A DNA stretch of 64,000 bases from a virus. The position numbers and the translations under genes were made by a program. Positions 6,581-49,569 of the stretch are shown piece by piece. Under the pieces are notes generated by a model. The model ran no database searches. It saw only the letters and a list, made by a program, of their open reading frames with translations, and was not told where the DNA came from. The first letter of the stretch is position 1, and every line of letters starts with the position of its first letter. The stretch covers positions 80,308 to 144,307 of IMG/VR virus record IMGVR_UViG_3300031999_001882. One strand, given 5' to 3'.

Positions 6581-9037
6581 TTACGCCAGAACCCCCACTA
6601 CCTGTTTATTTTTTTCCGCATCCTTGAGCCTCTGAAACATCGTCTCAATCGCCCGGAGATTGTCGTCGATCTTCTTGACGTGATCCGGGTGACTGTTCGG
6701 ACTGATATTGGCCTTGGCCTTTTCAAAAGCGTCCTTGGCTCCCTGATATTCCTTCTTGTTGAACAGGATCACGCCGATGTCATTCCACGCGCCCCAGAGC
6801 TTCGGGTCCAGCTCAGTCGTCTTGTTGTAAAGCTCCAAAGCCTCCTCATACTTCTTGTTGTGGTAGAGGTGGATCGCCCGGACAAAGAACGGGCGCGGGT
6901 CTTTGGGTGTCAGCTCACATTGTTTCTCAGCCAGCTTGTAATACCAGTCGTGCTTTTCCGCCAGCGCGTGCTTTTCCTTGAGATACCCGAAGTGGTAGAG
7001 CGGCACAGGAGTTCGCACGATATTGACTTTGCGAGTCTTGCCCAGCTCAACCAAACTGTCGTCGATGTCCTCATGGATGAGCCGGGTATAGAACACGCGC
7101 TCATCGTTGATGAACATTCGCAGGGTTTCCGACAACACCCACTTGGCATCCCAGCCCTTCTCATAGGGGTTTTCCTGATAGTTGCGTATGGGAAACAAGT
7201 ACGCATCCACAGCTTCGACCTGCGCCAGCTTCCAGACGTTCATAAGCTGATCGCGGGGAACCATCTCGTCAGCATCCAATCTGAGAATCCACGGCTTTGT
7301 GCAGGCTCGAATGGCCTTATTGCGCGGCTCCGCAAACCCTTGGGTCGGGATGTCCCAAGGAAATTCCACCACCTTGGCTCCCAAGCTCTTGGCGATTTCC
7401 ACGGTCTTGTCCGTGCTTCCGGTGTCGCAGACCACGACTTCATCCACGATAGGGAACGCCGATTTGATGGCGCGGGCGATATTGGCTTCCTCGTTCTTCG
7501 CCATGATGCAGAGCGAGACTTGGTTATACCGGGGAAGCTTGGCTCGCCATTCCGAGAACTTTTTGACTTCTTCATCGAACTTCTTGTCAGCTTCCAGCGC
7601 GGCCTTGGTCTTTTGCTCCGGCGTTAAACTCTCCTCTTTCTCCACATGATCCGGGGTAAAAAAGGTATCCGCCCAGAGCTTGTAGCCCGCGCAGGTCGCC
7701 CGCACGCAGAAATCCCGGTCCTCGCCGCGCATATCGCGGGGAAGATTCGGAACCCGTGCATAGCTCACACCCTTTTTGACGATCTCCTTAGAGATATAGG
7801 TGCACGCGCCAAGTCCGCCCACCGGGTACATACCGGGCCGCCGGAGCATGGTCAGGAACTCCGCGCTGATCTCGTAGCCGCCCCTAATCCAGACGTTCGG
7901 AAGCGGCTGAGCCGTGGTATGGCCCCAGAGCGCCCAGAACACCTCAGAGACAATCGGACGCTCCAAACCGACCATATGCTTCAAAATGCGGGGGTGGCGG
8001 ATGATGATGTCCGAGTCCACCATGAATACGCCTTCGGCATCGAACTGCTGAAACATGGACCCTAGCACCCGATTCCGCATGAAGGCCATATTCGCAAGCT
8101 TCTGGTCCTCCCAATGGTGCTCTTTGTTATCCATATTGCCGAAACTCAGCGTCTCAATTTCGATCCGCTTATAAGCCTTGTCATTGCGGGCCGACCATTC
8201 CTTGATCTTATCGAGCGTCGCATCGGTTGAATCGTTGACGATAAAATAGAAGGAAAGCTTCTCCTTGGGATAATCCAAGCTGTCCATTCCAGCCAGCCAG
8301 CGATCAATGACCCATGCCCGGTCACGCACCAGAGTCGCCACCACGACGTTCGGCCATTCGATCTGATCCTTAAAATCCTTCAAGGTCGCGGGCATGAAAA
8401 TCGAATGCGCGTGCTCCAAGTTGATGCCCGTCGCCCGTTGGAGGTAAAATTCATATTTGCGCTCTTTGTCGTCCTGCCGCGCCCATCCCCAATGATTCAG
8501 GAACAGGTCAGACCGCGCCGTGCCGTTATTGTTCTTGCCGACAAAGGCAGGCACACATCCGCAATGGATATTGCCCACATAACCGAAGGATTCATTCTTG
8601 AACCGAAACAAGCGCGTGATAAGCGGACTCCAATAGCCGTCTACCCGGTACTGAGTCTCGCTCCACATATCCAAAAGCCGCACGCAGTACCAGTCAAACT
8701 TGCCCGCCATGAGCGCCGGAAGCTCCTTGATGAAGGAGTCCGAGAACGTCTCGTCGGCATCCTGCGAAATGATCCAGTCGCCTTCCTTAGCGATCTTGCG
8801 CGTCATCTCCCATTGGAGGTTGCGAAGCTGGGACTCATCCACCCCGAACATCGGTTTATCGAAAGGCGACTTGTGAAATTCCACCTTGGGATACGACCGA
8901 CAAATCTCCTCGGTTTTATCGTCGCTCAGATCATCCAGCACCATGATCTTGTCGGCGAACTTCGAGGCGTTATCCAGCATCCGGGTCAGGTAGCGATCCG
9001 CTTCGTTTCTAACCATGAGTTGACAAATTACCGACAT
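6581..9037 (-). CDS. Multidomain glycosyltransferase: three GT-A domains plus C-terminal TPR
   Basis: GT2-like VRNE...DDLSDD...DADE; middle domain VNDSTD...VDSD...GEDRDFC; third domain CIMAKNEE...DTGSTD...LDADE...HE...HFGY; TPR-like helices at end. Confidence 0.88.
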   Translation of the reverse strand: MSVICQLMVRNEADRYLTRMLDNASKFADKIMVLDDLSDDKTEEICRSYPKVEFHKSPFDKPMFGVDESQLRNLQWEMTRKIAKEGDWIISQDADETFSDSFIKELPALMAGKFDWYCVRLLDMWSETQYRVDGYWSPLITRLFRFKNESFGYVGNIHCGCVPAFVGKNNNGTARSDLFLNHWGWARQDDKERKYEFYLQRATGINLEHAHSIFMPATLKDFKDQIEWPNVVVATLVRDRAWVIDRWLAGMDSLDYPKEKLSFYFIVNDSTDATLDKIKEWSARNDKAYKRIEIETLSFGNMDNKEHHWEDQKLANMAFMRNRVLGSMFQQFDAEGVFMVDSDIIIRHPRILKHMVGLERPIVSEVFWALWGHTTAQPLPNVWIRGGYEISAEFLTMLRRPGMYPVGGLGACTYISKEIVKKGVSYARVPNLPRDMRGEDRDFCVRATCAGYKLWADTFFTPDHVEKEESLTPEQKTKAALEADKKFDEEVKKFSEWRAKLPRYNQVSLCIMAKNEEANIARAIKSAFPIVDEVVVCDTGSTDKTVEIAKSLGAKVVEFPWDIPTQGFAEPRNKAIRACTKPWILRLDADEMVPRDQLMNVWKLAQVEAVDAYLFPIRNYQENPYEKGWDAKWVLSETLRMFINDERVFYTRLIHEDIDDSLVELGKTRKVNIVRTPVPLYHFGYLKEKHALAEKHDWYYKLAEKQCELTPKDPRPFFVRAIHLYHNKKYEEALELYNKTTELDPKLWGAWNDIGVILFNKKEYQGAKDAFEKAKANISPNSHPDHVKKIDDNLRAIETMFQRLKDAEKNKQVVGVLA

Positions 9038-39000: not shown

Positions 39001-42000
39001 CTGATTTCTTTTGTTGCAGGATGGCTTCTGCTTCCTTGATTCGCTTGGCAACATACGCCTGCGTGCCCTTATCGGTCACATCGTTCATGCGACTCATCCA
39101 GTTATCAATGAGCGCTTCCAGCTCGGCTACTGATTTATCCTTGAGATCGCTGGCTGTGCGCTTGCTGGCGATGGTGTCTTTCCAATAAACCCAAGCGACC
39201 GTCACCTTGTCATTCTCCACTTCGTCGATCTTGACGGCATAACCCGCCGAAGCATAAGCGCCCTTCACGCCGTTAAAGCCCAGCTTCGCCAGATCACCAT
39301 TGGGTTCCACAACCTCGAACTCGCCCAGATCAAAGATGTTCCCGTCATACCGGAAGAAGTCGCCCTCTCCGTTCTCGACGTAATCCAGCTCCTTCTTCTC
39401 CTCGTCAGTCAGTTGAGAATAATCCATGAGCGGAACAGTCTGCTCGTTCTTAACCACCAATCCAGTCGGCCCCGCTTGGTCATCGGCCTTCTTTTCAAGG
39501 GGTGGTTTCCGGTGCTTAACCGGGATATAGTGATGTTCGTCATCCAAGCATTTGTCGCATTGTCCACGTCGTTCGCGTGTCTCGTTGTCGTGATTTTTGA
39601 GCGGGTGTCTGCATACGGCACATGGCGGGGCATCAACATTCTCTTTGAGCGGAGCATCAGCCTTGCGTCTGGCGGCCTGCGTCGGCGGCTTGCCCTGTAG
39701 CTCGGCAATGCCTGTGCTGATCCCTTCGCCCACGCCACGGTCGTACTCCTCCCACAGCTCATCAGCATTCTCGGCCTTGTTAAAGGCGCTGGCAAGAAAC
39801 TCGAAGGGCGTATATTGCCGACCATTCTGCTCGGCCTCAAACGCTTCGTCGGCGATCTTTTCCACGTCGAGATTGCCTTGGGCATCTTTATAGCCTTGGA
39901 ATTCGCCCTTGTTCGTGATGATGATGTTGAATCCCTCGTCATAGCCCATGCGGTACGCTTCATCCGGCATGATCGGTTCTTCTGCGCCCCGGCGACCCAG
40001 CGCCGAATAGAGACGCACCTTGGCTTCTTTGGAGAGCGGCTTGAGCGAGGACTGCTTGGTGGGTGGAATGTCGCCTTCTTCCAGATGCTCGATCTCGCCG
40101 CTCTCGGTGAACGCCAGATCATTGGCCTCCGCATCCTCTTTGATGTATTCGTCGGACTGCTGGTACTCAAGCTCGGCATAGCCGTCCTTCTCAAGCTGAC
40201 TACACAACTCCTGACGAACCTCGTCGATATACTGGATGAACTCGACGTACAGCTTCTCAAATTCCTCCGTGGACATCCCGGCTTCTGCGGCCAGATCATC
40301 CATGCTTCCGGGGGTATTGTCCTCCACCTTGACGGTGTATTTGTGGGAGTAATGATGGTCGATGCTCTTGAGGTCGATGTAAAGCGACTCATAGAACTTG
40401 GCGAAGATATTGAACCGCTCGTTCGGGTGCGCTTGCAGGAACTTCGCCACGTCCATGTGCGCGGTAAAGCTCACGCCGGAACCCTGCGTCGAGCTGAGAT
40501 CGTAATTCACCTTCGGGTTCACAAACCCGTGCTCTTGCAAATCGCTCTCGGCATTCTCTTTCCAGAAATCAACGTCCGCCATTTCGTAATACTTATAGCG
40601 CACCTTGTCCTTGGCCTTCTCATCCAGATCATCGAAGGTAAAGAGATCGACCTTCCGGTAGAAGGTGTGCTTGGGCTTGCGCGGCTCGTCGGCAAATCGC
40701 TTCATAAAGCTCTCCTTGGCGGCGAGGCGCGAAGCCTCTTTGCTGATATTCTTGGCATAGGCCATCGCTTCTTCGCGTGAATCAAATGTCTTGTTGCCAG
40801 CGCCGGACTTATCCCGCTCGCCGCCGTGCTGAATGCCATCCACCAGCACCATGAACTTTCCGCCCAAAGCTTCCTTGATCGAAACATTCTCAGGCATCGA
40901 CGACTTCCTTGTGCGCCGCCCGACGCGCTGTTCCGTCGGATTCACATAGACATTGTTATCCTGATCCTTGAAGAAGTCAGCGCCAAAAGAATCGAACTGG
41001 CCGCCGTTACGTTCATAGGGATCGAGAAACACCAGCTTGAAGTCCGTCGCCAAATCGCTGGCCGACATATAAAGGAACTCTGTGTTCGGCTCCTCGTCCT
41101 CTTTAAGCGGCTCGCCCGTCAGCGCTTGGTAATCCTCTTTGCTCCAATCGTTCGCATAGACCCGGAGAACCATCTCTGCCGTCTCGACTTCTCCACCCGG
41201 CGGGACCAGCATATAGACTCGATGGCCGCTCTGCATATCGGTGTCGGTCAAAAGAGTCCAGCCCGTGCGAATCTCTCCGATGTTCTCTACCGCATTCCAG
41301 TCCACCTGAGTCTTGAGCGCTTCGCCATCGCCTTGAGTCAGCTCGGCGGGCAATGTCTTGAGCATTGCCACGGCTTCCGCGCCACTACCTTCCGCATATT
41401 CGGTCAGGGTAGCCGAGTAATTCACCTCGGTCCGCGCCCAATCCAAGAGGAATGCCAACTGCTCATCAGTCAGCGCGGCGGCTTTGCGGCTCACCTTCTT
41501 AGCTTCAAACTCTTTGCGGTGTTCTTTCTCCTGCGAGATGGCGTGGTCCAGCACTTCCTTGAGCGCTGGGCTGGCATCTTCCTTCTGCCCGCGATACTCG
41601 TCGATAGCGGCCTGCTCCTGCTCCACATCGCGCTTGACGATCTCAGCATCCCGGTCGGCTTTGCGCTTGGACGCGAAGGGCATCTTCATCTGCGCGGGGT
41701 TCTCTGGCGGTGTCAGCTCTTGTTTGATCGCTTGGTGAACGCCGGAGTCCTCGGCATACTTCAACAGGTCTTTGGCATCCATAAAAGCTTCACCGTTGTT
41801 TTCAAAGGACGACTCCACAGCTTCCCATAAGAGTTGAAGCACGCGCTCGGAAGGCTCATACGCTTCGAGTGCTTCCTGCTTCTCCGCCGGAAGCTCCTTC
41901 GCCAAATCTTCCTTGACCCATTTCAGGGCTTCATCCTTACCCCATACGTCAAACGATTCCCGGTATTCCTGCTGTTCTGCATTCGTAAGAGCTTCCTCAT

Positions 42001-43363
42001 CAAGCACCGGATAATCGGCCATGTCGCGCTCAATGCCTTCGGCAATCGCTACCTTGTCGGCGGCATCTTTATGGACCAGCAAGAATTCAACCCAGCCCAC
42101 CGCCCAATGACCTGACTTTGCCACGACCACGCCATTGCCTTCGCCGCCCAAAGCTTTGAGCGCCGCATCGAAATTGGTTTTCTCAAGCGCTTCGGAGTCC
42201 CGGTTCTGCGTGAGCACGACATAATAATCGGAGTAGTCGTCGCCCATATAATTCTCGGCAGGCTTCCACAGTTCGAGCGCCTTGCGCTTTAAGCTGGCCG
42301 TGTCATAACGACCCTTGATGGGCGGCGCGGTCTTTTTGCCTGTGCCTTTGCAATAGGGGCACGTCTCCAAAGGCCCGGCTCCGGTGCGTGACTTCCCATA
42401 ACCAGCGCAATACTCACACTCTGCTCCGTCTGCCGCCTTCGCTGTCATGCCGCCCTCCAAATAGACGTTGCCATCGTCGCCAACAATAGCATCGCAGTTC
42501 CCGAAGGCTCTGGCAATGTCGCTCAGCTTCTCACCCACATCGCCCAGCCCGCGATCCCAGAAGCCCGCGCCATGCCCACAGCGCGTCAGCCAGAAGTCAT
42601 GGCCCGCCTGCTCATCGTCAATCTCATTTAAGAGATCGCCTGCTTGCTGGCGAAACGCCGCGCAATCGGCCTTGGCCTTCTCGATGCTCTCCGGGGCAAT
42701 ATCCTCGATCCCGAAGTTCTGATCCAGAGGTTCGCCGCCCGTCTCCGGGTCAGAGTTGTCGTTCGACGACCATAGCGCCGCTTCGAGATAGGCCGACACA
42801 AAGGGATCAAGCCCTGCGGCTTGCCGAGATGTCTTGGCCTGCTCATCGACCAGCCGCTTGTTGTGCTCGCCCTGCATATGCTCGAACGACTCCTCAGATT
42901 CATTTAAGGGTTCGCCCTTGGCTCGCTTGGCTTTGATCTTGGCTTCCATCTCCTCCTGCCACGCTACAGTCCCGAACTGAGCCGCCGACTTGGTTGCGGG
43001 CTTAACCTTGGCCCAGCACGCATCACACAGCGCCCCAAAATTCTGTTCGTTGAACATCCGCTCTCTGGCAGGCTGGCCGTCGTTCTTGCATTGGCGAGCC
43101 GCATCCCGGTTCCCGAAGTCCCGCTCTAAGATGCCCGTCTCGCAGGAGTCGCACAGCCCAGCCGCCGCGCCATAGGTATTGATGATGGTGTCCTTGCCAC
43201 ACTTCTTACACTTGCCTTGGGCGGCAGAGCGCTTGGAAGCCGCGCACGCGCAGGTTCCCCCGCAGGCGCACGTCTCCGACTCTTGACGAATTTTTGAAGG
43301 AGCTTTTTTGTCTTTTGGCTCCACGATATCTGTCCAATGATTTTTCAATACCGCTTTATCCAT
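36029..43363 (-). CDS. Giant (2444 aa) multidomain polyprotein-like protein
   Basis: More than 20 small acidic domains and Zn fingers separated by basic [KR]-x-A linkers; AAGGAG RBS. Confidence 0.85.
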   Translation of the reverse strand: MDKAVLKNHWTDIVEPKDKKAPSKIRQESETCACGGTCACAASKRSAAQGKCKKCGKDTIINTYGAAAGLCDSCETGILERDFGNRDAARQCKNDGQPARERMFNEQNFGALCDACWAKVKPATKSAAQFGTVAWQEEMEAKIKAKRAKGEPLNESEESFEHMQGEHNKRLVDEQAKTSRQAAGLDPFVSAYLEAALWSSNDNSDPETGGEPLDQNFGIEDIAPESIEKAKADCAAFRQQAGDLLNEIDDEQAGHDFWLTRCGHGAGFWDRGLGDVGEKLSDIARAFGNCDAIVGDDGNVYLEGGMTAKAADGAECEYCAGYGKSRTGAGPLETCPYCKGTGKKTAPPIKGRYDTASLKRKALELWKPAENYMGDDYSDYYVVLTQNRDSEALEKTNFDAALKALGGEGNGVVVAKSGHWAVGWVEFLLVHKDAADKVAIAEGIERDMADYPVLDEEALTNAEQQEYRESFDVWGKDEALKWVKEDLAKELPAEKQEALEAYEPSERVLQLLWEAVESSFENNGEAFMDAKDLLKYAEDSGVHQAIKQELTPPENPAQMKMPFASKRKADRDAEIVKRDVEQEQAAIDEYRGQKEDASPALKEVLDHAISQEKEHRKEFEAKKVSRKAAALTDEQLAFLLDWARTEVNYSATLTEYAEGSGAEAVAMLKTLPAELTQGDGEALKTQVDWNAVENIGEIRTGWTLLTDTDMQSGHRVYMLVPPGGEVETAEMVLRVYANDWSKEDYQALTGEPLKEDEEPNTEFLYMSASDLATDFKLVFLDPYERNGGQFDSFGADFFKDQDNNVYVNPTEQRVGRRTRKSSMPENVSIKEALGGKFMVLVDGIQHGGERDKSGAGNKTFDSREEAMAYAKNISKEASRLAAKESFMKRFADEPRKPKHTFYRKVDLFTFDDLDEKAKDKVRYKYYEMADVDFWKENAESDLQEHGFVNPKVNYDLSSTQGSGVSFTAHMDVAKFLQAHPNERFNIFAKFYESLYIDLKSIDHHYSHKYTVKVEDNTPGSMDDLAAEAGMSTEEFEKLYVEFIQYIDEVRQELCSQLEKDGYAELEYQQSDEYIKEDAEANDLAFTESGEIEHLEEGDIPPTKQSSLKPLSKEAKVRLYSALGRRGAEEPIMPDEAYRMGYDEGFNIIITNKGEFQGYKDAQGNLDVEKIADEAFEAEQNGRQYTPFEFLASAFNKAENADELWEEYDRGVGEGISTGIAELQGKPPTQAARRKADAPLKENVDAPPCAVCRHPLKNHDNETRERRGQCDKCLDDEHHYIPVKHRKPPLEKKADDQAGPTGLVVKNEQTVPLMDYSQLTDEEKKELDYVENGEGDFFRYDGNIFDLGEFEVVEPNGDLAKLGFNGVKGAYASAGYAVKIDEVENDKVTVAWVYWKDTIASKRTASDLKDKSVAELEALIDNWMSRMNDVTDKGTQAYVAKRIKEAEAILQQKKSEKKASKRTAEAEVEEFDSEEMQEPAEDDIVIQTEGQLGGMYAAYQSGKKLAESPEWDELIAAVKAVDQGNFYPTIWFLDDHGGLQVVTSAQKCTLCHKADAEKGSRWCKDCKELADFEKELAEKHDRKAGIHKCPTCGKMNDIVNECGCDPDNMPTKVDASGWPPLEHNPKNQKDVKRLQDEDKKWRESPEKKESDEVRNSEEFKSWRKQKAAQRVSCPQCGKPVEMPEGWGEGDDPNEALCNECYSKLEARSAEEGEIGETCPICGNAIEAGDMIVDSKSEPGEVMPTSFAHANCVAMSEGDEWPGKPTAAMKVEAASNEQVIEMFAHDSFPKDKRDRWGTEHLTIQKYPGGWALVNYATPIVFRSNTGETFFNTQKYSVTTSKIQTQIRRYLSDATEGDEAGIKAAIQQAQDANAEEIGKAKAQPEEPMEMAASLDRFGGPEVSREQKIKQAIDMLSKDPDIIEMVKHIESKPATTKGHYGDYMGVLDQYKSQGKVMLHIISQALIGAGADAGGVQAALGIMTGSAFGSMEKKARGGISWKVLPNKNLEITATGDDLEEIRQDVEDQSDSRLLDYLEPMFGNGYMLVRPEQIGALTDSLIISDGSLDDNGEIDFGSKPKFWWYPQYELRSPLEDLAETGKTIFTYAGEEPFELKEASMEVESGLSDQVKSLRRKLKDLDVDKADPSEIASTVDALEKMEKRLKEQQEDRAKRKEEKAKEAEATPATAEVTAAKELKKAPYAVLKTAQEARDYAIGWQNWVSQQNLSYGELAEWGAYFEQLAERFPELKDEFVENGIIGGDTSVEKQAAVPGKITRKQKDEMAHLIQDAVYGYQINMMDISKVWKAGEEAYLRGGDVKAAVTALLDQIATKSDLPPAQAAQRAARYFDQFKSSDLVGSAWELDKESKKLRRKKLSMKLQSTADFFKNAGYRFAEGSHVWLVSGDKAEIIKRVASAISADKSYEVITLDSYGQRTGSQFTIAEKELEPTK

Positions 43364-43838
43364 TGCAATTACTCCTTGATTTCAAATTCGCCAAAGCGCT
43401 TTGATATGCCTTACTCGCCCTATGTTCGTCAGCGAACATCCCAAGATGATGACACTTGCCATCAAATTTAATTGCGGCCTTCCATCGTCTATTATGCTTA
43501 TCCCATGAAATGCCAACGAATTTTGACGAGAGCTTCCCTTCCTTTTTTCTTTTCTGATTGGATACGTTTTCTCTATTCGTGACGATCTGTAGATTCTCTC
43601 GCTGATTGTTCAAGCCATTGCCATCCTTGTGATCGGTAACAAACCCTCGTTGCGGAACACCTGCGACACAATGGTGCATCAGTCGCCTTCGCCGCAAGCC
43701 ATCTCCAAGAATTTCATTTCTGGACGCATAAAAAACATTGTGAGTGCGACAAGCACTCCACTTAAATTGATTAAGCTCGTTAAATATATCGTCATCGACA
43801 AAAGCTACCCTGCCTTGAGATAATTTAATCTTCTTCAT
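43356..43838 (-). CDS. HNH endonuclease with AP2 DNA-binding domain
   Basis: TDHKDGNGLNNQRENL...N then SKFVGISW....WKAAI......LGMF..E..A..AY. Confidence 0.9.
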   Translation of the reverse strand: MKKIKLSQGRVAFVDDDIFNELNQFKWSACRTHNVFYASRNEILGDGLRRRRLMHHCVAGVPQRGFVTDHKDGNGLNNQRENLQIVTNRENVSNQKRKKEGKLSSKFVGISWDKHNRRWKAAIKFDGKCHHLGMFADEHRASKAYQSALANLKSRSNCNG

Positions 43839-43853
43839 TGCCGACCTTCTCCT

Positions 43854-44228
43854 TCAAAATTTCTTCATAGACTCGTAAAGAGACACCCGCGCAATGATCC
43901 TCTCAATAGCAAGCTCAGCGTTCTTTTCGTTGATACCCATAAATTCTTCGTGCGACACGCCATGATCCCATGCCGTGTCAATGCAGATGGTTTCCTTCCC
44001 TTCTCGGCAATCAAACAGGAGCGTAATCATCACCCGCCACCGCATGAAGATAAAGCGGGCGAAGCGATCATGGAAAATCTGGTGTTGATGCCAGCCCTTG
44101 AGCTGGTGCGAAATTTTCTCAGCGATGGCCTTGCATGGCGCGAGACTCTGATCGCTACAGACACAGCCCTCGTTACAACACTTCCCGTCACAATGTTTTT
44201 CGTCCACCGTTTCCTTATGCAAATTCAA
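43854..44228 (-). CDS. Hypothetical protein, Cys-rich N-terminus
   Basis: AAGGAG RBS; lower GC. Confidence 0.5.
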   Translation of the reverse strand: MNLHKETVDEKHCDGKCCNEGCVCSDQSLAPCKAIAEKISHQLKGWHQHQIFHDRFARFIFMRWRVMITLLFDCREGKETICIDTAWDHGVSHEEFMGINEKNAELAIERIIARVSLYESMKKF

Positions 44229-44245
44229 ACTCCTTATTTTTTTTC

Positions 44246-44572
44246 CTAAAAAAGTGAAAGTTCCTCGATGACAGTCGCTCGCGCAATAGCACTTTTAATC
44301 GCTTTTTCAGCGCCGACAGACGTAAATCCTCGGTAAGAGTCACGGCAGAAACCCGAAGGCCAGTCAGCGTGCACCTCGAAACCTTCTTCCCCTTCTCGGA
44401 CTGAAAGATAGACGGAGATAGAAGAAGCTTTTTTGGCGAACCTAATTTTTCTGATAGCAACGTCGATTTCAACAGTTTCCTCTTTCCACGTCGGCAATTC
44501 TTTTTTCAGGGCCACCAACATCACCGCCGTTGAATGGTCCAGCTTCCTGATCGCGCCTGTATTGTCGGGCAT
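44246..44572 (-). CDS. Hypothetical protein
   Basis: AGGAG RBS. Confidence 0.6.
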   Translation of the reverse strand: MPDNTGAIRKLDHSTAVMLVALKKELPTWKEETVEIDVAIRKIRFAKKASSISVYLSVREGEEGFEVHADWPSGFCRDSYRGFTSVGAEKAIKSAIARATVIEELSLF

Positions 44573-44633
44573 TGTCTATTAAACTCCTGCAATTAAATTC
44601 ACCGCTTCTCCATTTCATATTTTCAGCTCAATA

Positions 44634-47600
44634 CTACGAAACAGACAACACTTGATCGAGGACATCCATCGCCTGAGCTTCTGTGAGCTTGAACTCACGC
44701 ATCAAATCCTCGGCAATTTCATCCTCATTGGCCTGACCCAGCCGAACAAGATCACGGGCCAAATCAAGAGCGCTGTTCGTAGGAATATCCGGCTCGGTCG
44801 GTCCTCGCTTCGGATATACGTCGCGTGTTCCAGTTTCTACAGCATCTTCAAATTGATCGCGGTAAGTGGCCGGGGCGCTTTGCCCCGGTGCTTCTGTCGG
44901 GCCGCCCTTCTCTGCGTCCGTGTCGGTATGCGCGTGCATATCGTTGGTCTTGAGACTGAACGGTTTGACCCAGCCCCAAGACACCATGCGCCCATAAATC
45001 TCCGTGGCAGACATCCCTGTGCCGCCGCCTGTCTCCGCCGCATAGCGCTGTGCCAGTACCTCTGCCTGCTTCTCATCAAGGAACGCATGATCCGGTTCGA
45101 TGTCTGTGCCAAGAAATTCGCGGGCCAAGACCAGCAAAGACTCCTGCTCGTCCTCCGCCCGGCGCTTGATCTCGGCCACCTTCTCGTTGCCGGAGAGCGA
45201 GGCTTCCAGCTCAAGGAGCCGGACAAAAGCCGGAGCGCCCTTCGCGGAAGCCGCAACCCACTCAAACCCACTATTGGATTTAGCGGTGCGCCAGCCGGGG
45301 TTGCCCTGAACCAGCGAGCGCCATTCATCGAACTCCGTGGCTTTCACAAAGCCAGCGCCAGACTTCACAAATATGATCCGGCCAATGACCTTGGGGGCCG
45401 GGCGCGGCGTTGGGGCTGAGGGCGGCGTGCGGACCACAGGCTCCTCGCCGGGGGCCGGGTTAGACTCCGGCTCTGGCTCGGCGGCGGGCGCAGGCTTCGG
45501 CGCTTCGCCTTTAATCTGATCCACCGGGGTCGGAGGCATGACTGGCCCGCCAGCCGGGGCAGATTCGTCCGGCTTCGGTTCCTTCGGGGGCGGCTCCTCA
45601 ATCCCGGTCTGCTTGGATAGCTGGTCGTGAATCTTCCGCACGTCCTCTTTGGTGTATTTGAGCTGGTTGCGAGAAAGCCATGTGTAGATTTCGTGCTGGA
45701 TTGCGTCGAACTCCATGCCTTTGAGCTTTTCTAAGGTCACCAGCTCAAGGATTCGGTTCGCCACATAGACAGGTTGGAGGGAGATCGCGGCCTTCACAGT
45801 CCCGCCGCGCTTGCCGGAGCCGCCACAGTCCGGGCAATCCACGAAATGCCAGCCATCCTCGGAATGCTCCTTGGCCTCTTGCTCGGCCCATAGCTTCTTG
45901 AACACTTCCCGGCTGTCGTCCGCCTTGACCGGAACAAAGCCCGTGCCTTCGCAATGGCCTTGGCACATGGTCGCCGGGTCAGGCAAAGCCATGCCCAGCG
46001 CCTCGTAGCGGTCCGATGCCTTTTTGCCGGGAAGCCTTGCCTGCACCACCAGATAGCCGCCGTCACCATCCTCGCCAATCACCTGAGCGCCGGAGCCAAA
46101 ATTCACTTCCGTGGCTTCGCCATAGCGCCGCGCATCTGCCTTGGCCTTGGTCACCCACATGGCATTGATCGCCGGGATGCCTTCAAACTTGGCCCATTGG
46201 TCTTGGCCGATGTAGCTGGCCGCCGGGTTGCCCAGCTCCTCGACTTCGTGGCGCACGACATCGGCCACGCTCTCCTTGCCATGCTGATACCCGGTGTCGG
46301 CGCGGTACGCCTTGCCGTTCCAAGGGTAAGGGAACTTACCGGGAATCCCGGTGTCTCCGGCCACGGCCCCATTTCCCGGTATGCCAGCCGCCGCCTTGAT
46401 ATCGGCCCACGTCATCAGGTCCGCAGGAATGTCCGGCAAAATGTCCGGGGCTTTTGGTTGTAAAGACAATGCTTTCTTGGTGTTCTGCATCGGGATGATG
46501 GCGGCGGACTTGTCCACAGTATCCACAGACTTACCCACATTGCCGACCTTAAAAGATAGTTTCGTTTCTTGTGGAACAATTCTTGGAGCTAAGCTGTCGG
46601 GGTATGCGCTCTCAGGTTGCACAGGTGGCACATCCAAACCACCATGAACGGGTTGCTGTAATTCGTGTGACGCATCTCTGAATTTTGGCTCCCGCACTTG
46701 GCGCACGGTTCCTTCTTTATCAGACCCTTTTTGACGTAATATCTCGACAGCTTCCTCATGCTCACCTTCTCCGCTTGCGCCGGAGTGAGGGGCTTTTTCG
46801 TTCGTGGTTGTCGAGGGAGAGTTCTTAAAATCTCTTGATGGTGTGCGTGATGGCATGGACGACACAGCCACACTATTTCCAGAGGCTTGCTGTGATCTGG
46901 ATGGTGCATTTGAGAGATCGGATTCCCGCACAGAGCGCAAGGCTCCATCACTTTCTCCTTGCCTCGCCGAAGATGATTCCAAGCAATCTGCCGCGCTTTT
47001 TTTCTCATCTTCTGCGCTTCCGTCAGAGGGCGACCCTTGCTCCACACCAGCATATACTCCCTCATGTATTTCCGATGACACATGAGGCAACGTCCATTGC
47101 CGCGCATTCTCTTTTGGCCGCACAAGCACAGAGTCGAATCCATGATCGTCAATTATAGACCACTTTTTAAGGCTACTCCAAACTTTCAAATCCTCAATGG
47201 ACACATCCACGTTGGTCAAATTCTCCCAGAACTCCTTGCCCTCCGGCTCATACTCGATGCCGGACTCGATCTCGGCGCTCAGATTCAGCTTCATCTCGCC
47301 GTCTTTCACGCCCGTGGCCTTGTTCACCAGCTCTACAAAGACCTCGGCAAACACCAGCCCCTCGTCCTGATCCATCCCGGTCACGATGATGTTCGGCTTG
47401 AACGCCGCGAAATCTAGCTCCAAATAGCTCGACACCAGATCGGGCAACACATCAAGCGTGTGAAATTCCACCTGCTCCGACCAGCGCCATGCCGCGCCCT
47501 CGCGCTCGCCTTCGGCTGGCGTAGGGGTGCGTGGATCGTCAACCTTCATGGTCTTAACGCTAGGCCCTTTGGCCTTCTCTGGTAAACTTGCGCCACCAGC

Positions 47601-48944
47601 CTCCGGCGGCTTCGCCGCACGGGGAGGCTCCGCCTCCGCATCGCCGCTCTCAGGTTGATTCGCCTTATCTGGCGAATCGTTTTTGATCTTGGTATGTTCT
47701 GATACCGCTTTTTCGTTGGTATGTTCTGATACCAGCTTGGGGGGATGATCCTCTATGCGGCGCGGCTCGCCGGGTTCTTGCGCGGTCCGGGTGACCGGGG
47801 AGTAATCGGTGACCATCTGGATGACCTCAGTCGCATTGGCCTGAACGTAATCGTCGAAAGCTCTGGTGATAAACCCATGATCGCAGGCCAGAGCGCTCCA
47901 CAGCCGCAGGTCGTCCGGGGCCAGCTCCATGCCTTCTTCCAGCCACGAAATGACCTCTGGCAACAGTTCTTGGCCGAACCATGATGCCTGCCTCTTGGCT
48001 CGCTTATCGTCCATTGGTGTGATGCCTTGGTCGATCACTTCCTTGACCTGAGACACATCCTCCGGGGCCAGTTGCGGGGCTTCGTCGGCATCACCCATGA
48101 TCTTCTCCAAGGTTTTCCACAGCCAGATATAGCCGAACTTTTGCAGGTACTTAAACCGGATGTTCTCTTTAGAGTCCGGCTGATACCCTTCATCCCGTTG
48201 GTCCGAGATATCTTGGGCCGTTTGCATCACATCCACCAGCTCTTGCTCAAGCTCCTCGGTCCGCTCCTTGAGCCTTTGCTGAAACTTCAACCGGGCCTGT
48301 CCGTCCATGTTGGACATGGCTTCTTTCAGCGCTTCGATATTCTTCACATCGCGCTTGGCTTTGCCGATGGTCATGTCCAGATCAGACGCGATGGATTCTG
48401 AGTCGTCGATGATCTTCTGGTAAATCTCCTGCGGGTCCATGTCCAAATCCACGGTCCTTGGTTCCTTGATCCATGCGTCCGATGACAAATTGTAGTCGCC
48501 GTCGGTGATATGCGGCTTCATATGGGGAGTTTCAAATGAGAACTCCAAGGGATGCTGAGTGCCCGGCACGATGAACTTCTCGGCTCTCATCGCGTCCTTG
48601 TACGAGTCCAGCACATCGTCCAAGGCACTCTGATCCAAGCCCGGATACTCGGCTTGGAGAGTCGGCCAGTCCACGATGATGTGAACATCCAAATCAGATC
48701 GAGAATTGTATTGGTATGAGGTGAGTGACCCGATGATATGAAACTGATTAACCCACGGCTCGCCATCCAAGAAAGCCTTGGCCTGTGAGAAGATGAACTC
48801 TTTGATCTCTGGGCGCAGAGTGCCGTCATCCTGCCATACGTCCGGGTCCAGACCGGGGCGGGCATAGTCCAGCACATTCGCCACCCGGACAGATTTAGAC
48901 TTCGGGGTGAATTTAGTCCTTCGCCTTAAATTAGTCGTCGTCAT
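44634..48944 (-). CDS. 1436-aa multidomain protein: N-terminal Pol-beta-type nucleotidyltransferase, later ART-like and DnaJ-type Zn-finger segments
   Basis: IIGSLTSYQYNSRSDLDVHII (hGS...DxD); AYR...WVT....ARRYG; CQGHCEGTG...CPDCGGSG. Confidence 0.75.
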   Translation of the reverse strand: MTTTNLRRRTKFTPKSKSVRVANVLDYARPGLDPDVWQDDGTLRPEIKEFIFSQAKAFLDGEPWVNQFHIIGSLTSYQYNSRSDLDVHIIVDWPTLQAEYPGLDQSALDDVLDSYKDAMRAEKFIVPGTQHPLEFSFETPHMKPHITDGDYNLSSDAWIKEPRTVDLDMDPQEIYQKIIDDSESIASDLDMTIGKAKRDVKNIEALKEAMSNMDGQARLKFQQRLKERTEELEQELVDVMQTAQDISDQRDEGYQPDSKENIRFKYLQKFGYIWLWKTLEKIMGDADEAPQLAPEDVSQVKEVIDQGITPMDDKRAKRQASWFGQELLPEVISWLEEGMELAPDDLRLWSALACDHGFITRAFDDYVQANATEVIQMVTDYSPVTRTAQEPGEPRRIEDHPPKLVSEHTNEKAVSEHTKIKNDSPDKANQPESGDAEAEPPRAAKPPEAGGASLPEKAKGPSVKTMKVDDPRTPTPAEGEREGAAWRWSEQVEFHTLDVLPDLVSSYLELDFAAFKPNIIVTGMDQDEGLVFAEVFVELVNKATGVKDGEMKLNLSAEIESGIEYEPEGKEFWENLTNVDVSIEDLKVWSSLKKWSIIDDHGFDSVLVRPKENARQWTLPHVSSEIHEGVYAGVEQGSPSDGSAEDEKKSAADCLESSSARQGESDGALRSVRESDLSNAPSRSQQASGNSVAVSSMPSRTPSRDFKNSPSTTTNEKAPHSGASGEGEHEEAVEILRQKGSDKEGTVRQVREPKFRDASHELQQPVHGGLDVPPVQPESAYPDSLAPRIVPQETKLSFKVGNVGKSVDTVDKSAAIIPMQNTKKALSLQPKAPDILPDIPADLMTWADIKAAAGIPGNGAVAGDTGIPGKFPYPWNGKAYRADTGYQHGKESVADVVRHEVEELGNPAASYIGQDQWAKFEGIPAINAMWVTKAKADARRYGEATEVNFGSGAQVIGEDGDGGYLVVQARLPGKKASDRYEALGMALPDPATMCQGHCEGTGFVPVKADDSREVFKKLWAEQEAKEHSEDGWHFVDCPDCGGSGKRGGTVKAAISLQPVYVANRILELVTLEKLKGMEFDAIQHEIYTWLSRNQLKYTKEDVRKIHDQLSKQTGIEEPPPKEPKPDESAPAGGPVMPPTPVDQIKGEAPKPAPAAEPEPESNPAPGEEPVVRTPPSAPTPRPAPKVIGRIIFVKSGAGFVKATEFDEWRSLVQGNPGWRTAKSNSGFEWVAASAKGAPAFVRLLELEASLSGNEKVAEIKRRAEDEQESLLVLAREFLGTDIEPDHAFLDEKQAEVLAQRYAAETGGGTGMSATEIYGRMVSWGWVKPFSLKTNDMHAHTDTDAEKGGPTEAPGQSAPATYRDQFEDAVETGTRDVYPKRGPTEPDIPTNSALDLARDLVRLGQANEDEIAEDLMREFKLTEAQAMDVLDQVLSVS
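46589..47152 (-). CDS. Nested out-of-frame HNH-like endonuclease (two HNH-like repeats)
   Basis: PCALCG....MHHPDHSKPLEIVWLCRPCH..HH and degenerate copy PCAKCG....RHTNYSNPFMVVWMCHLCN..H; likely ATG 47143. Confidence 0.75.
   Translation of the reverse strand: MTIMDSTLCLCGQKRMRGNGRCLMCHRKYMREYMLVWSKGRPLTEAQKMRKKARQIAWNHLRRGKEKVMEPCALCGNPISQMHHPDHSKPLEIVWLCRPCHHAHHQEILRTLPRQPRTKKPLTPAQAEKVSMRKLSRYYVKKGLIKKEPCAKCGSQNSEMRHTNYSNPFMVVWMCHLCNLRAHTPTA
47152..47181 (-). promoter_or_regulatory. Internal promoter for nested HNH gene
   Basis: TTGGAG-18 nt-TATAAT, 8 nt upstream of ATG 47143. Confidence 0.5.
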
Positions 48945-48961
48945 AAATCAACCTTGTTCCT

Positions 48962-49186
48962 TCACTCGGAATGGGTCATTATCTTCTGCGTAAAGTACGG
49001 ATCGAAAAATTCCCAAATCCTCGCGCTCAACGGCAATTTCCTTCTCAACCTGATCTTGATAGAAAACGGTCCTCTGTGATGCCCATTGCTGTTCTCGCTA
49101 TGCCCGTTGCCGTTCCCGTTTGTTTTATGGTGGCCGTTCCCGTTAATTTGTAAACGGTGGTGGCCCCGCCCTATCCATAAGCGCAT
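48962..49186 (-). CDS. Small His/Asn/Gly-rich basic protein
   Basis: NGNGHH repeats. Confidence 0.4.
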   Translation of the reverse strand: MRLWIGRGHHRLQINGNGHHKTNGNGNGHSENSNGHHRGPFSIKIRLRRKLPLSARIWEFFDPYFTQKIMTHSE

Positions 49187-49451
49187 AATGCACCCCTAAA
49201 GGAATTCTGGTTCTCATATAGTCATTCATTCGGTTTACCTGCACCCAGACATCTTCATCACGCTTCCCGACAAATCCGAGGCACGGCCAAAACTCGCCCT
49301 TAACATAATGCCGCATAAACACAGGACAAAAAGGAAATTGAGAAAAAAACCAAGAGTCTCGCGCCGTGATCGTTCCAAAGACCGTCTTATACGGTTCCGG
49401 CGGATCAATCTGTTCTCCATTTGGCAAGAAATGTCGTAGCTCATGCTTCAA
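49143..49451 (-). CDS. Hypothetical protein
   Basis: GAGGGG RBS, TTG start. Confidence 0.5.
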   Translation of the reverse strand: MKHELRHFLPNGEQIDPPEPYKTVFGTITARDSWFFSQFPFCPVFMRHYVKGEFWPCLGFVGKRDEDVWVQVNRMNDYMRTRIPLGVHYALMDRAGPPPFTN

Positions 49452-49461
49452 CGCCGCCCCC

Positions 49462-49569
49462 TCATCCCAGCCCGCGCATAATCGTGCTCATCAGCGCACG
49501 CCGGAAGGCAACGACCGCAAGAGCAATCCCCAGCCCAATGCCTCCGATGACGCACAGAGCAAAGCTCAT
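49462..49569 (-). CDS. 35-aa membrane peptide (not in ORF track)
   Basis: MSFALCVIGGIGLGIALAVVAFRR...; ATGA overlap. Confidence 0.5.
   Translation of the reverse strand: MSFALCVIGGIGLGIALAVVAFRRALMSTIMRGLG

Follow-up and report, generated by a model that had tools for sequence, protein, structure and literature searches.

The closest described counterparts of the locus studied here are the ShiLan domain and the Pacc40 gp60 insertion, which are hidden, out-of-frame HNH endonucleases in mycobacteriophage DNA methylase genes; in the ShiLan domain, the HNH open reading frame (ORF) begins 18 bp inside the insert, and its stop falls within the last four bases (Arsenault, Gosselin and Gogarten, Genes 2025, PMC11855218). 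We analyzed 64,000 nucleotides of viral DNA (positions 80,308 to 144,307 of the IMG/VR record IMGVR_UViG_3300031999_001882; this whole stretch is called the window), in which a gene for an HNH-like protein lies wholly inside a giant gene, on the same strand and in its +1 frame. Judging from the sequence, we take it, with a probability of roughly 0.78, to be a ShiLan-type hidden HNH gene in a putatively polyvalent host gene, with both frames used. The initial annotation, made by a model from the letters alone, had seen here a 'third route' besides introns and inteins. That design is already published as the ShiLan domain, and the present case is a further example and no new principle.

The likeness to the ShiLan domain covers most aspects of the arrangement. 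The host ORF is stop-free through the insert, and a complete HNH ORF (about 160–195 amino acids (aa) in ShiLan) occupies another frame of the same strand. This ORF starts a few nucleotides into the insert and ends at its edge, as seen here in a second copy on another viral contig (L003, described below). Intron or intein features are not detectable in either system, the HNH frame gives a well-folded protein and the host frame a disordered one (here as predicted), and the insert has a disjunct distribution among related host alleles. Similarly, neither has a recognizable ribosome-binding site, and for ShiLan a leaderless start was proposed. The two systems differ in the host gene, which is a polyvalent or DarA-related multi-domain gene here and a methylase there, and in the frame of the HNH gene, which is the host +1 frame here and the 'third frame' there. 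The insertion point is a variable inter-domain junction (filled by a zinc ribbon in other alleles) rather than a conserved site, and the carrier is an uncultured phage with Shine–Dalgarno (SD) sequences and a genome of at least ∼145 kb rather than a temperate actinophage. By description the nuclease family also differs: the protein studied here belongs to PHROG 2340 and has a second, degenerate module in tandem. No Mycobacterium phage was present among the best 60 of the 328 tblastn matches.

Out-of-frame homing endonucleases are also known from inteins, both from an actinobacteriophage survey (bioRxiv 10.1101/2025.01.02.630785) and, reportedly, from a cyanobacterial dnaX intein (bioRxiv 10.64898/2026.09.14.751524). 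They share with our locus a nuclease overprinted in a host-gene insert whose own frame stays open, whereas their outer frame encodes splicing domains that excise the insert; none were detected here, and there is no room for them. Free-standing homing endonuclease genes can instead split their hosts, as do mobE in nrdA of Aeh1, mobA in the topoisomerase large-subunit gene (gene 60) of T4 and seg in gene 43 of phage 25 (PMC2988022). There, too, a free-standing-type endonuclease gene lies within a phage coding region without intron or intein, but the host is cut into two polypeptides that reassemble, whereas here it remains one continuous polypeptide. Rickettsia palindromic elements and other miniature inverted-repeat transposable elements are translated in frame within host proteins (PMC10969869). 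They resemble the present insert as selfish DNA tolerated in ORFs in the form of an innocuous extra peptide, and differ in being ∼150 bp long and non-autonomous, with no second overlapping gene. Finally, same-strand nested genes have arisen by overprinting in other phages, such as Rz1 in Rz of lambda and B in A and E in D of phiX174. There, too, a single strand encodes two proteins in different frames and one gene encloses the other completely; however, the nested frame is the newcomer in those pairs, whereas here the nested gene is old and widespread and the host-frame reading is novel.

The window comprises the 3′ 64 kb of a 144-kb record that is 83% complete. The positions of all features discussed are collected in Table 1.

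Table 1. Features of the nested locus and its surroundings (positions in the window unless another contig is named)
Feature	Position	Strand	Remarks
Outer (host) gene	44634..48944	minus	1436 aa; no stop where the nested gene overlaps (ORF list)
Nested ORF	46589..47152	minus	187 aa from TTG 47152; wholly within 44634..48944
Nested gene from the conserved ATG 47143	46589..47143	minus	184 aa; the TTG at 47152 adds three codons
−10-like hexamer TATAAT	47152..47157	minus	8 nt before ATG 47143, left insert edge; TAAAAT in L003
Conserved A-run TTAAAAAGT (TTAAAAAAT in L003)	47162..47170; L003 about 7558..7566	minus (window)	Lys-Lys codons, left junction
Outer-frame stretch without counterpart in insert-free alleles	46455..47156	minus	outer residues about 597–830 (alignment A1)
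K-x-A-[LI]-S-L-Q-P, first copy	46455..46478	minus	∼35 residues past the nested gene
K-x-A-[LI]-S-L-Q-P, other copy	45771..45794	minus	opens the AISLQPVYV block
Alternative-frame ORF	39409..40392	minus	327 codons, inside a 2444-aa gene
HNH_3 + AP2 free-standing endonuclease gene	43356..43838	minus	between the 1436-aa and 2444-aa genes
HNH_3 + AP2 endonuclease gene in a 90-kb relative	L002 5076..5540	plus	same place; overlaps both neighbours
Small ORF	44246..44572		accompanies the HNH_3 + AP2 gene; function unassigned
Small ORF	43854..44228		accompanies the HNH_3 + AP2 gene; function unassigned

The layout described by the initial annotation, a 187-codon ORF with two HNH-like Cys/His repeats nested in the host gene, was confirmed from the ORFs. 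The distance between the two starts, (48944 − 47152) mod 3 = 1, places the nested ORF in the +1 frame of the same strand, and the overlap read in two frames measures 555 nt. Across it the host frame indeed contains no stop, compared with 11 in the third frame; in L003 the corresponding counts are 0 and 13.

The nested protein belongs to a large family of phage proteins. It matched PHROG 2340 ('endonuclease') at an E-value of 5.8e-18, and an exhaustive HMMER search matched 12,850 cluster representatives. Of these, 306 had E ≤ 1e-10, and the top 150 homologues are all short (74–312 aa). Long fused forms of the family were not found, which is weak evidence. In a full-length alignment with homologues (A3), every family-invariant residue is kept, and the N-terminus, Met-(Asp/Asn)-Ser-x-Leu-Cys, agrees with those of free-standing family members. 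The protein begins with a CxxC...CxxC zinc ribbon, which is followed by an HNH-like (His-Me) module that is complete and by a further one that is degenerate; both Cys/His modules have the pattern CxxC...HH/RH...CxxC[H/N]. Residues C69, C72, H80, H81, C94, C97, H98 and H102 of the first module are invariant or nearly so in A3 with the exception of C97, which is His in some members; the second module has RH, and CN instead of CH, and is present also in some relatives. The AlphaFold2 model of the nested protein reached a predicted local distance difference test (pLDDT) score of 93.7, and its top fold matches, weak but consistent, were HNH nucleases, namely Gme 4h9d (Z 5.2, root-mean-square deviation (rmsd) 7.6, 71 residues aligned), phage GVE2 5h0o (Z 4.4, rmsd 4.7, 72 aligned) and T5 SciA 9qgx (Z 3.4), with further matches to McrA, Cas5-HNH, I-HmuI and T4 endonuclease VII. 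The designation 'HNH-like' is well founded, and the nested protein is likely to be an active nuclease.

We then compared the window copy with the L003 copy codon by codon. The nested proteins are 69% identical, and the nucleotide differences at inner codon positions 1, 2 and 3 number 44, 43 and 84. Using the Nei–Gojobori method, the ratio of nonsynonymous to synonymous substitution rates (dN/dS) in the insert was 0.13 for the inner (HNH) frame, where the synonymous difference pS was 0.69 and near saturation, whereas the outer frame gave a dN/dS-like ratio of 1.4 at 41% identity. The host domains flanking the insert, read in the outer frame, had ratios of 0.07–0.24. Protein-level constraint in the insert is carried by the HNH frame and none by the outer frame.

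The outer frame is nevertheless maintained in another respect. Its stops can arise only as T followed by AA, AG or GA across the boundary between two inner codons, and we therefore defined as risk codons those inner codons that are followed by AA, AG or GA. A T in the third position (T3) occurred at none of the 48 risk codons of the window copy and none of the 50 of L003, compared with 36/135 and 34/135 of the other codons, respectively (Fisher p = 8e-6 in both). When only codons with a T-ending synonym were counted, T3 was found at 0/28 (window) and 0/34 (L003) risk codons and at 36/104 and 34/99 other codons. At the genome-wide T3 rate for such sites (18.2%), the probability of seeing no T3 at the risk sites is 6.5e-5 for the window and 4.4e-5 for L003. 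Given the HNH protein and the codon usage of the genome, the probability that the outer frame is open is 2.3e-3 and 1.2e-4, respectively, and the initial rough estimate of ∼1e-4 was thus of the right order. Of the 36 risk sites common to both copies, 14 have different third bases, and a further 25 sites carry the risk in one copy only, so that the two copies represent largely independent trials. T-ending codons all have C-ending synonyms, meaning that avoiding outer stops costs the HNH protein nothing; the alternative other frame, in contrast, cannot be cleared by synonymous choice (P = 0 for L003). Selection keeps both frames, the inner as a protein and the outer stop-free.

Could the open outer frame be a compositional accident or an artefact of assembly? 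Spurious long alternative-frame ORFs do exist in this genome, for example the one of 327 codons inside the 2444-aa gene (Table 1). Its product is Arg/Ser/Thr-rich and of low complexity, and the ORF looks compositional, the gene around it being acidic and Lys-rich and read here out of frame; in this genome, a long nested ORF is thus no evidence of a gene on its own. However, the layout is common to two independent assemblies from different samples, the null models give 2e-3 to 4e-5 per copy, and the homology of the inner frame is deep. Stops are frequent in the third frame of both copies, free-standing homologues contain 19, 16, 5 and 2 stops in the frame equivalent to the open one, and no real gene of this genome is open over 184 codons in that frame, the spurious ORF being the sole apparent exception. 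We regard the chance of an accident or artefact as negligible.

The second copy lies on a 146.6-kb IMG/VR viral contig (L003), which was also seen in the metagenome collection. Although about 50% diverged from the window phage, it has an orthologous gene of 1277 aa with the same nested ORF at the same junction. Two viral-contig scans with the HNH query returned only L003, apart from unrelated small free-standing genes (L004 and L006), and a viral-contig scan with the outer protein returned only L002 and L003. What we state on the metagenome-collection scan rests on the matches listed, and absence elsewhere is weak evidence. Four homologue clusters of the outer protein (P0002–P0005) were used in the alignment of host proteins (A1). 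P0001 and P0002 carry the insert, and P0003, P0004 and P0005 do not, even though P0002 is 88–92% identical to P0003 and P0004; the window protein is only 50–65% identical to these three. The element is therefore missing from close relatives of the host gene, in support of the insertion proposed initially. The pattern among alleles is thus disjunct, and the junction is a site of cassette turnover.

At the left junction, homology to the insert-free alleles ends in both phages at Lys-Lys-(Trp/Val/Thr)-(Ser/Gly) codons, and the nested ATG follows ∼17 nt past this KKWS junction. At the right edge in L003, the nested stop falls ∼10 nt before the conserved AISLQPVYV block, so the insert there is essentially the gene alone. 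Of the two domain-boundary motifs proposed initially, KKWS is borne out by the insert-free homologues, whereas DKSAA is not, given where the L003 insert ends. Direct or inverted repeats flanking the insert were not found, and the junction sequence has no second occurrence in the window. Insert-free alleles carry a zinc-ribbon segment at the same junction. Over a broader interval, from IEDMK.W to AISLQPVYV (A1 columns about 615–1090, outer residues about 595–1050), the three alleles P0002, P0003 and P0004 have three contents, namely the HNH cassette, a small domain plus zinc ribbon, and the zinc ribbon alone. The alignment points to frequent within-gene cassette exchange among alleles that are ∼90% identical.

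These junctions also bear on another reading, in which a self-splicing intron, an intein or translational bypassing would take out the insert, either ahead of translation or in the course of it, and the read-through peptide would never be part of the host protein. Precedents exist for both kinds of splicing. ORF87 of Staphylococcus phage K (L015, AY176327.1 96314..96784), annotated as a hypothetical protein, belongs to the same HNH family (37.5% identity over 71 aa, E = 9e-7) and lies inside the three-piece, intron-split coding sequence of a DNA polymerase, and the actinobacteriophage survey placed most out-of-frame endonucleases inside inteins. At our locus, however, no family of Rfam 15 matched at E ≤ 1 in 44000..49500, and Pfam detected no Hint domain in the outer protein, in agreement with the initial statement that intein ends and an intron core are lacking. 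The L003 insert is filled by the HNH ORF and leaves no space for a ribozyme core or splicing domains, and the sequences flanking the insert are common to insert-free alleles and hence part of the host gene. Furthermore, a stop-free outer frame would be needless under splicing or bypassing, yet both copies, diverged as they are, strongly avoid stops, and the outer-frame peptide is not conserved. Removal of the insert is thus very unlikely.

Another possibility is that the nested protein has been domesticated for a phage function, such as terminase assistance or other DNA handling by an HNH protein, and that nesting reflects compact packing rather than selfish homing. Family members in cultured phages are free-standing, and some lie directly upstream of terminase. 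The closest representative homologue (P0008) is followed immediately by the genes for small terminase, large terminase and portal, and another homologue (P0012) lies beside head genes. Purifying selection at 0.13 over a deep divergence, and a divergence of the HNH gene that parallels that of the host gene, would fit such a role as well. On the other hand, the gene is missing from three of five related host alleles, two of which are ∼90% identical to a carrier, and a 90-kb insert-free relative (G001, record 53% complete) yielded no further family member. The window genome has a single copy, not beside terminase, and one family member is intron-borne. We consider domestication rather unlikely. 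The disjunct distribution and the intron-borne relative in phage K suggest, indirectly, that the gene may be a homing element; its nuclease activity and its mobility, whether by homing or by cassette exchange, are putative.

The host gene itself encodes a mosaic protein, with conserved N-terminal, central and C-terminal blocks and intervening segments that vary (A1). PHROG 36119 matches its residues 31–217, Pfam gave no match to the outer protein, and among cultured phages there were no close DNA or protein relatives of the locus, the outer protein having weak N-terminal matches only. The ortholog P0002 contains DarA_C (29 bits versus a cut-off of 27) in a segment that is missing from the window protein. 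Polyvalent proteins are long phage polypeptides that combine several unrelated effector domains and are encoded near head or packaging genes, and some members of the class are packaged and also cut by proteases (Iyer et al. 2017, PMC5512222). The domain organization of the outer protein is consistent with this polyvalent, DarA-related class. Two more distantly related proteins of 1640–1650 aa (P0006 and P0007) have about 20% of the outer protein in common with it, at 36–38% identity, and pair the shared module with primase small-subunit, LigD-type and ATP-dependent ligase domains; the module thus circulates among different polyvalent architectures.

Within this protein, the host frame reads through the insert as a Ser/Glu/Pro-rich peptide with 72% disorder-promoting residues. 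AlphaFold2 assigned it a pLDDT of about 30–37 and no secondary structure, while the flanking host domain has some, and a protein search with the peptide returned the query alone. Together with the ratio of 1.4, this agrees with the unstructured, Ser-rich sequence noted initially. The simplest reading is that the peptide would be tolerated as a flexible inter-domain linker. A prohead protease might conceivably cleave this linker, and a retained flexible linker accounts for the data equally well as the cleaved polyprotein spacer that the initial annotation had in mind. We considered a [KR]-x-A prohead-protease site before AISLQP and rejected it, as the residues there are not conserved among the five homologues in A1.

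The outer protein has two copies of the motif K-x-A-[LI]-S-L-Q-P (Table 1), and between them lies an extra module of ∼220 aa, comprising a YR...WVT segment and a CxxCxGxG-type zinc finger. The copies differ at synonymous sites and therefore do not stem from a recent duplication; the motif could be a module-boundary or recombination motif.

How the nested gene is started can be judged from the sequence around its ATG. The −10-like hexamer ahead of it is kept as TAAAAT in L003, a suggestive pointer to an internal promoter. The A-run at the left junction, just ahead of the insert, contains AAAAAG in the window and AAAAAA in L003. After a −1 slip on it, the ribosome would terminate shortly ahead of the nested ATG, at a distance of 5 nt in the window and 11 nt in L003, and slippage followed by termination and reinitiation is a conceivable, if speculative, route to the nested protein; the third frame is stop-rich anyway. 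Alternatively, a programmed +1 frameshift at the junction could fuse the HNH module to the first 597 residues of the host protein, which would account for the missing SD sequence at the inner ATG and for the unusual conservation of the A-run junction between the two phages. Against this fusion, a TAA in the HNH frame 9 nt upstream of the ATG (window) leaves three codons in which to shift, and no known +1 shift motif was seen there. Moreover, the nested start agrees with the N-termini of free-standing family members, and the fusion leaves the open outer frame unaccounted for. We judge it extremely unlikely and would rather, though tentatively, expect translation of the inner ORF from an internal promoter, with a leaderless or SD-less start.

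Taken as a ShiLan-type nested gene, the locus would work as follows. A complete gene from a family of small, normally free-standing phage HNH-like (His-Me finger) endonucleases lies in the +1 frame of the host gene, exactly at a variable junction between two conserved host domains. Its own frame would yield a folded, endonuclease-like protein under purifying selection, while ribosomes translating the host gene would pass through the same DNA and add an unconstrained, probably disordered Ser/Glu-rich linker, so that the downstream host domains are still made. Outer stops can all be avoided by synonymous choice at the preceding inner codon, as both copies show.

Several observations weigh against this reading. 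A sigma-70 promoter scan found neither a −35 element nor a promoter call at the nested start, so that of the promoter claimed initially the TATAAT hexamer and the missing SD sequence stand, and a complete promoter does not. The nested ATG lacks an SD sequence even though the phage uses them widely (∼43% of long-ORF starts in this genome carry an AGGA, GGAG or GAGG core). The structural Z-scores of the nested protein (5.2 to 2.6) lie in the range that the tool calls non-specific, its best Foldseek match had a probability of 0.75 but an E-value of 0.66, and no Pfam HNH family (HNH, HNH_3 and others) matched it at E ≤ 0.1. Confidence in the model of the outer segment is low everywhere, the flanking domain included (pLDDT 36, three-sequence alignment), which makes the AlphaFold support for disorder weak. 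In L003 the cassette replaces the zinc-ribbon segment rather than plainly interrupting the gene. Only two nested copies were found among the matches listed in the collections searched, and every rate estimate therefore rests on one pair. Lastly, the divergence of the HNH gene (69% identity) resembles that of the host gene, and old vertical inheritance with replacement elsewhere thus fits as well as homing.

We also entertain, tentatively, a more specific and rather doubtful version of the ShiLan-type reading. The insert might be a swappable HNH cassette that doubles as an inter-domain linker of a capsid-delivered polyvalent protein; among alleles of about 90% identity, it would share its junction in turn with a zinc-ribbon cassette. 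Its +1 frame would then be no accident, being the only frame in which all host stops can be removed synonymously, and its expression might rely on a promoter within the host gene and on a start that is leaderless or lacks an SD sequence, although SD sequences are otherwise in use in the host. If true, the restriction to the +1 frame would be a general rule for where hidden endonuclease genes persist without splicing.

A second endonuclease gene, free-standing and of the HNH_3 + AP2 type (Pfam 2.3e-7; PHROG 99 at 6e-26), lies next to the host gene in the window together with two small ORFs. A 90-kb relative has such a gene at the same place (Table 1). The L003-type relative is without it there, and the next giant gene begins 13 nt past the stop.

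The splice-free, out-of-frame, hidden-HNH design now extends beyond actinophage methylases, and the two copies document, in numbers and with unusual clarity, the maintenance of both frames. That outer stops can be avoided synonymously is a simple mechanistic reason why the arrangement is cheap. Standard gene callers miss such nested genes, and databases hold the outer protein and not the nested one, so that the nuclease content and mobile-element load of phages are underestimated. The 'disordered linkers' of giant phage proteins may hide genes.

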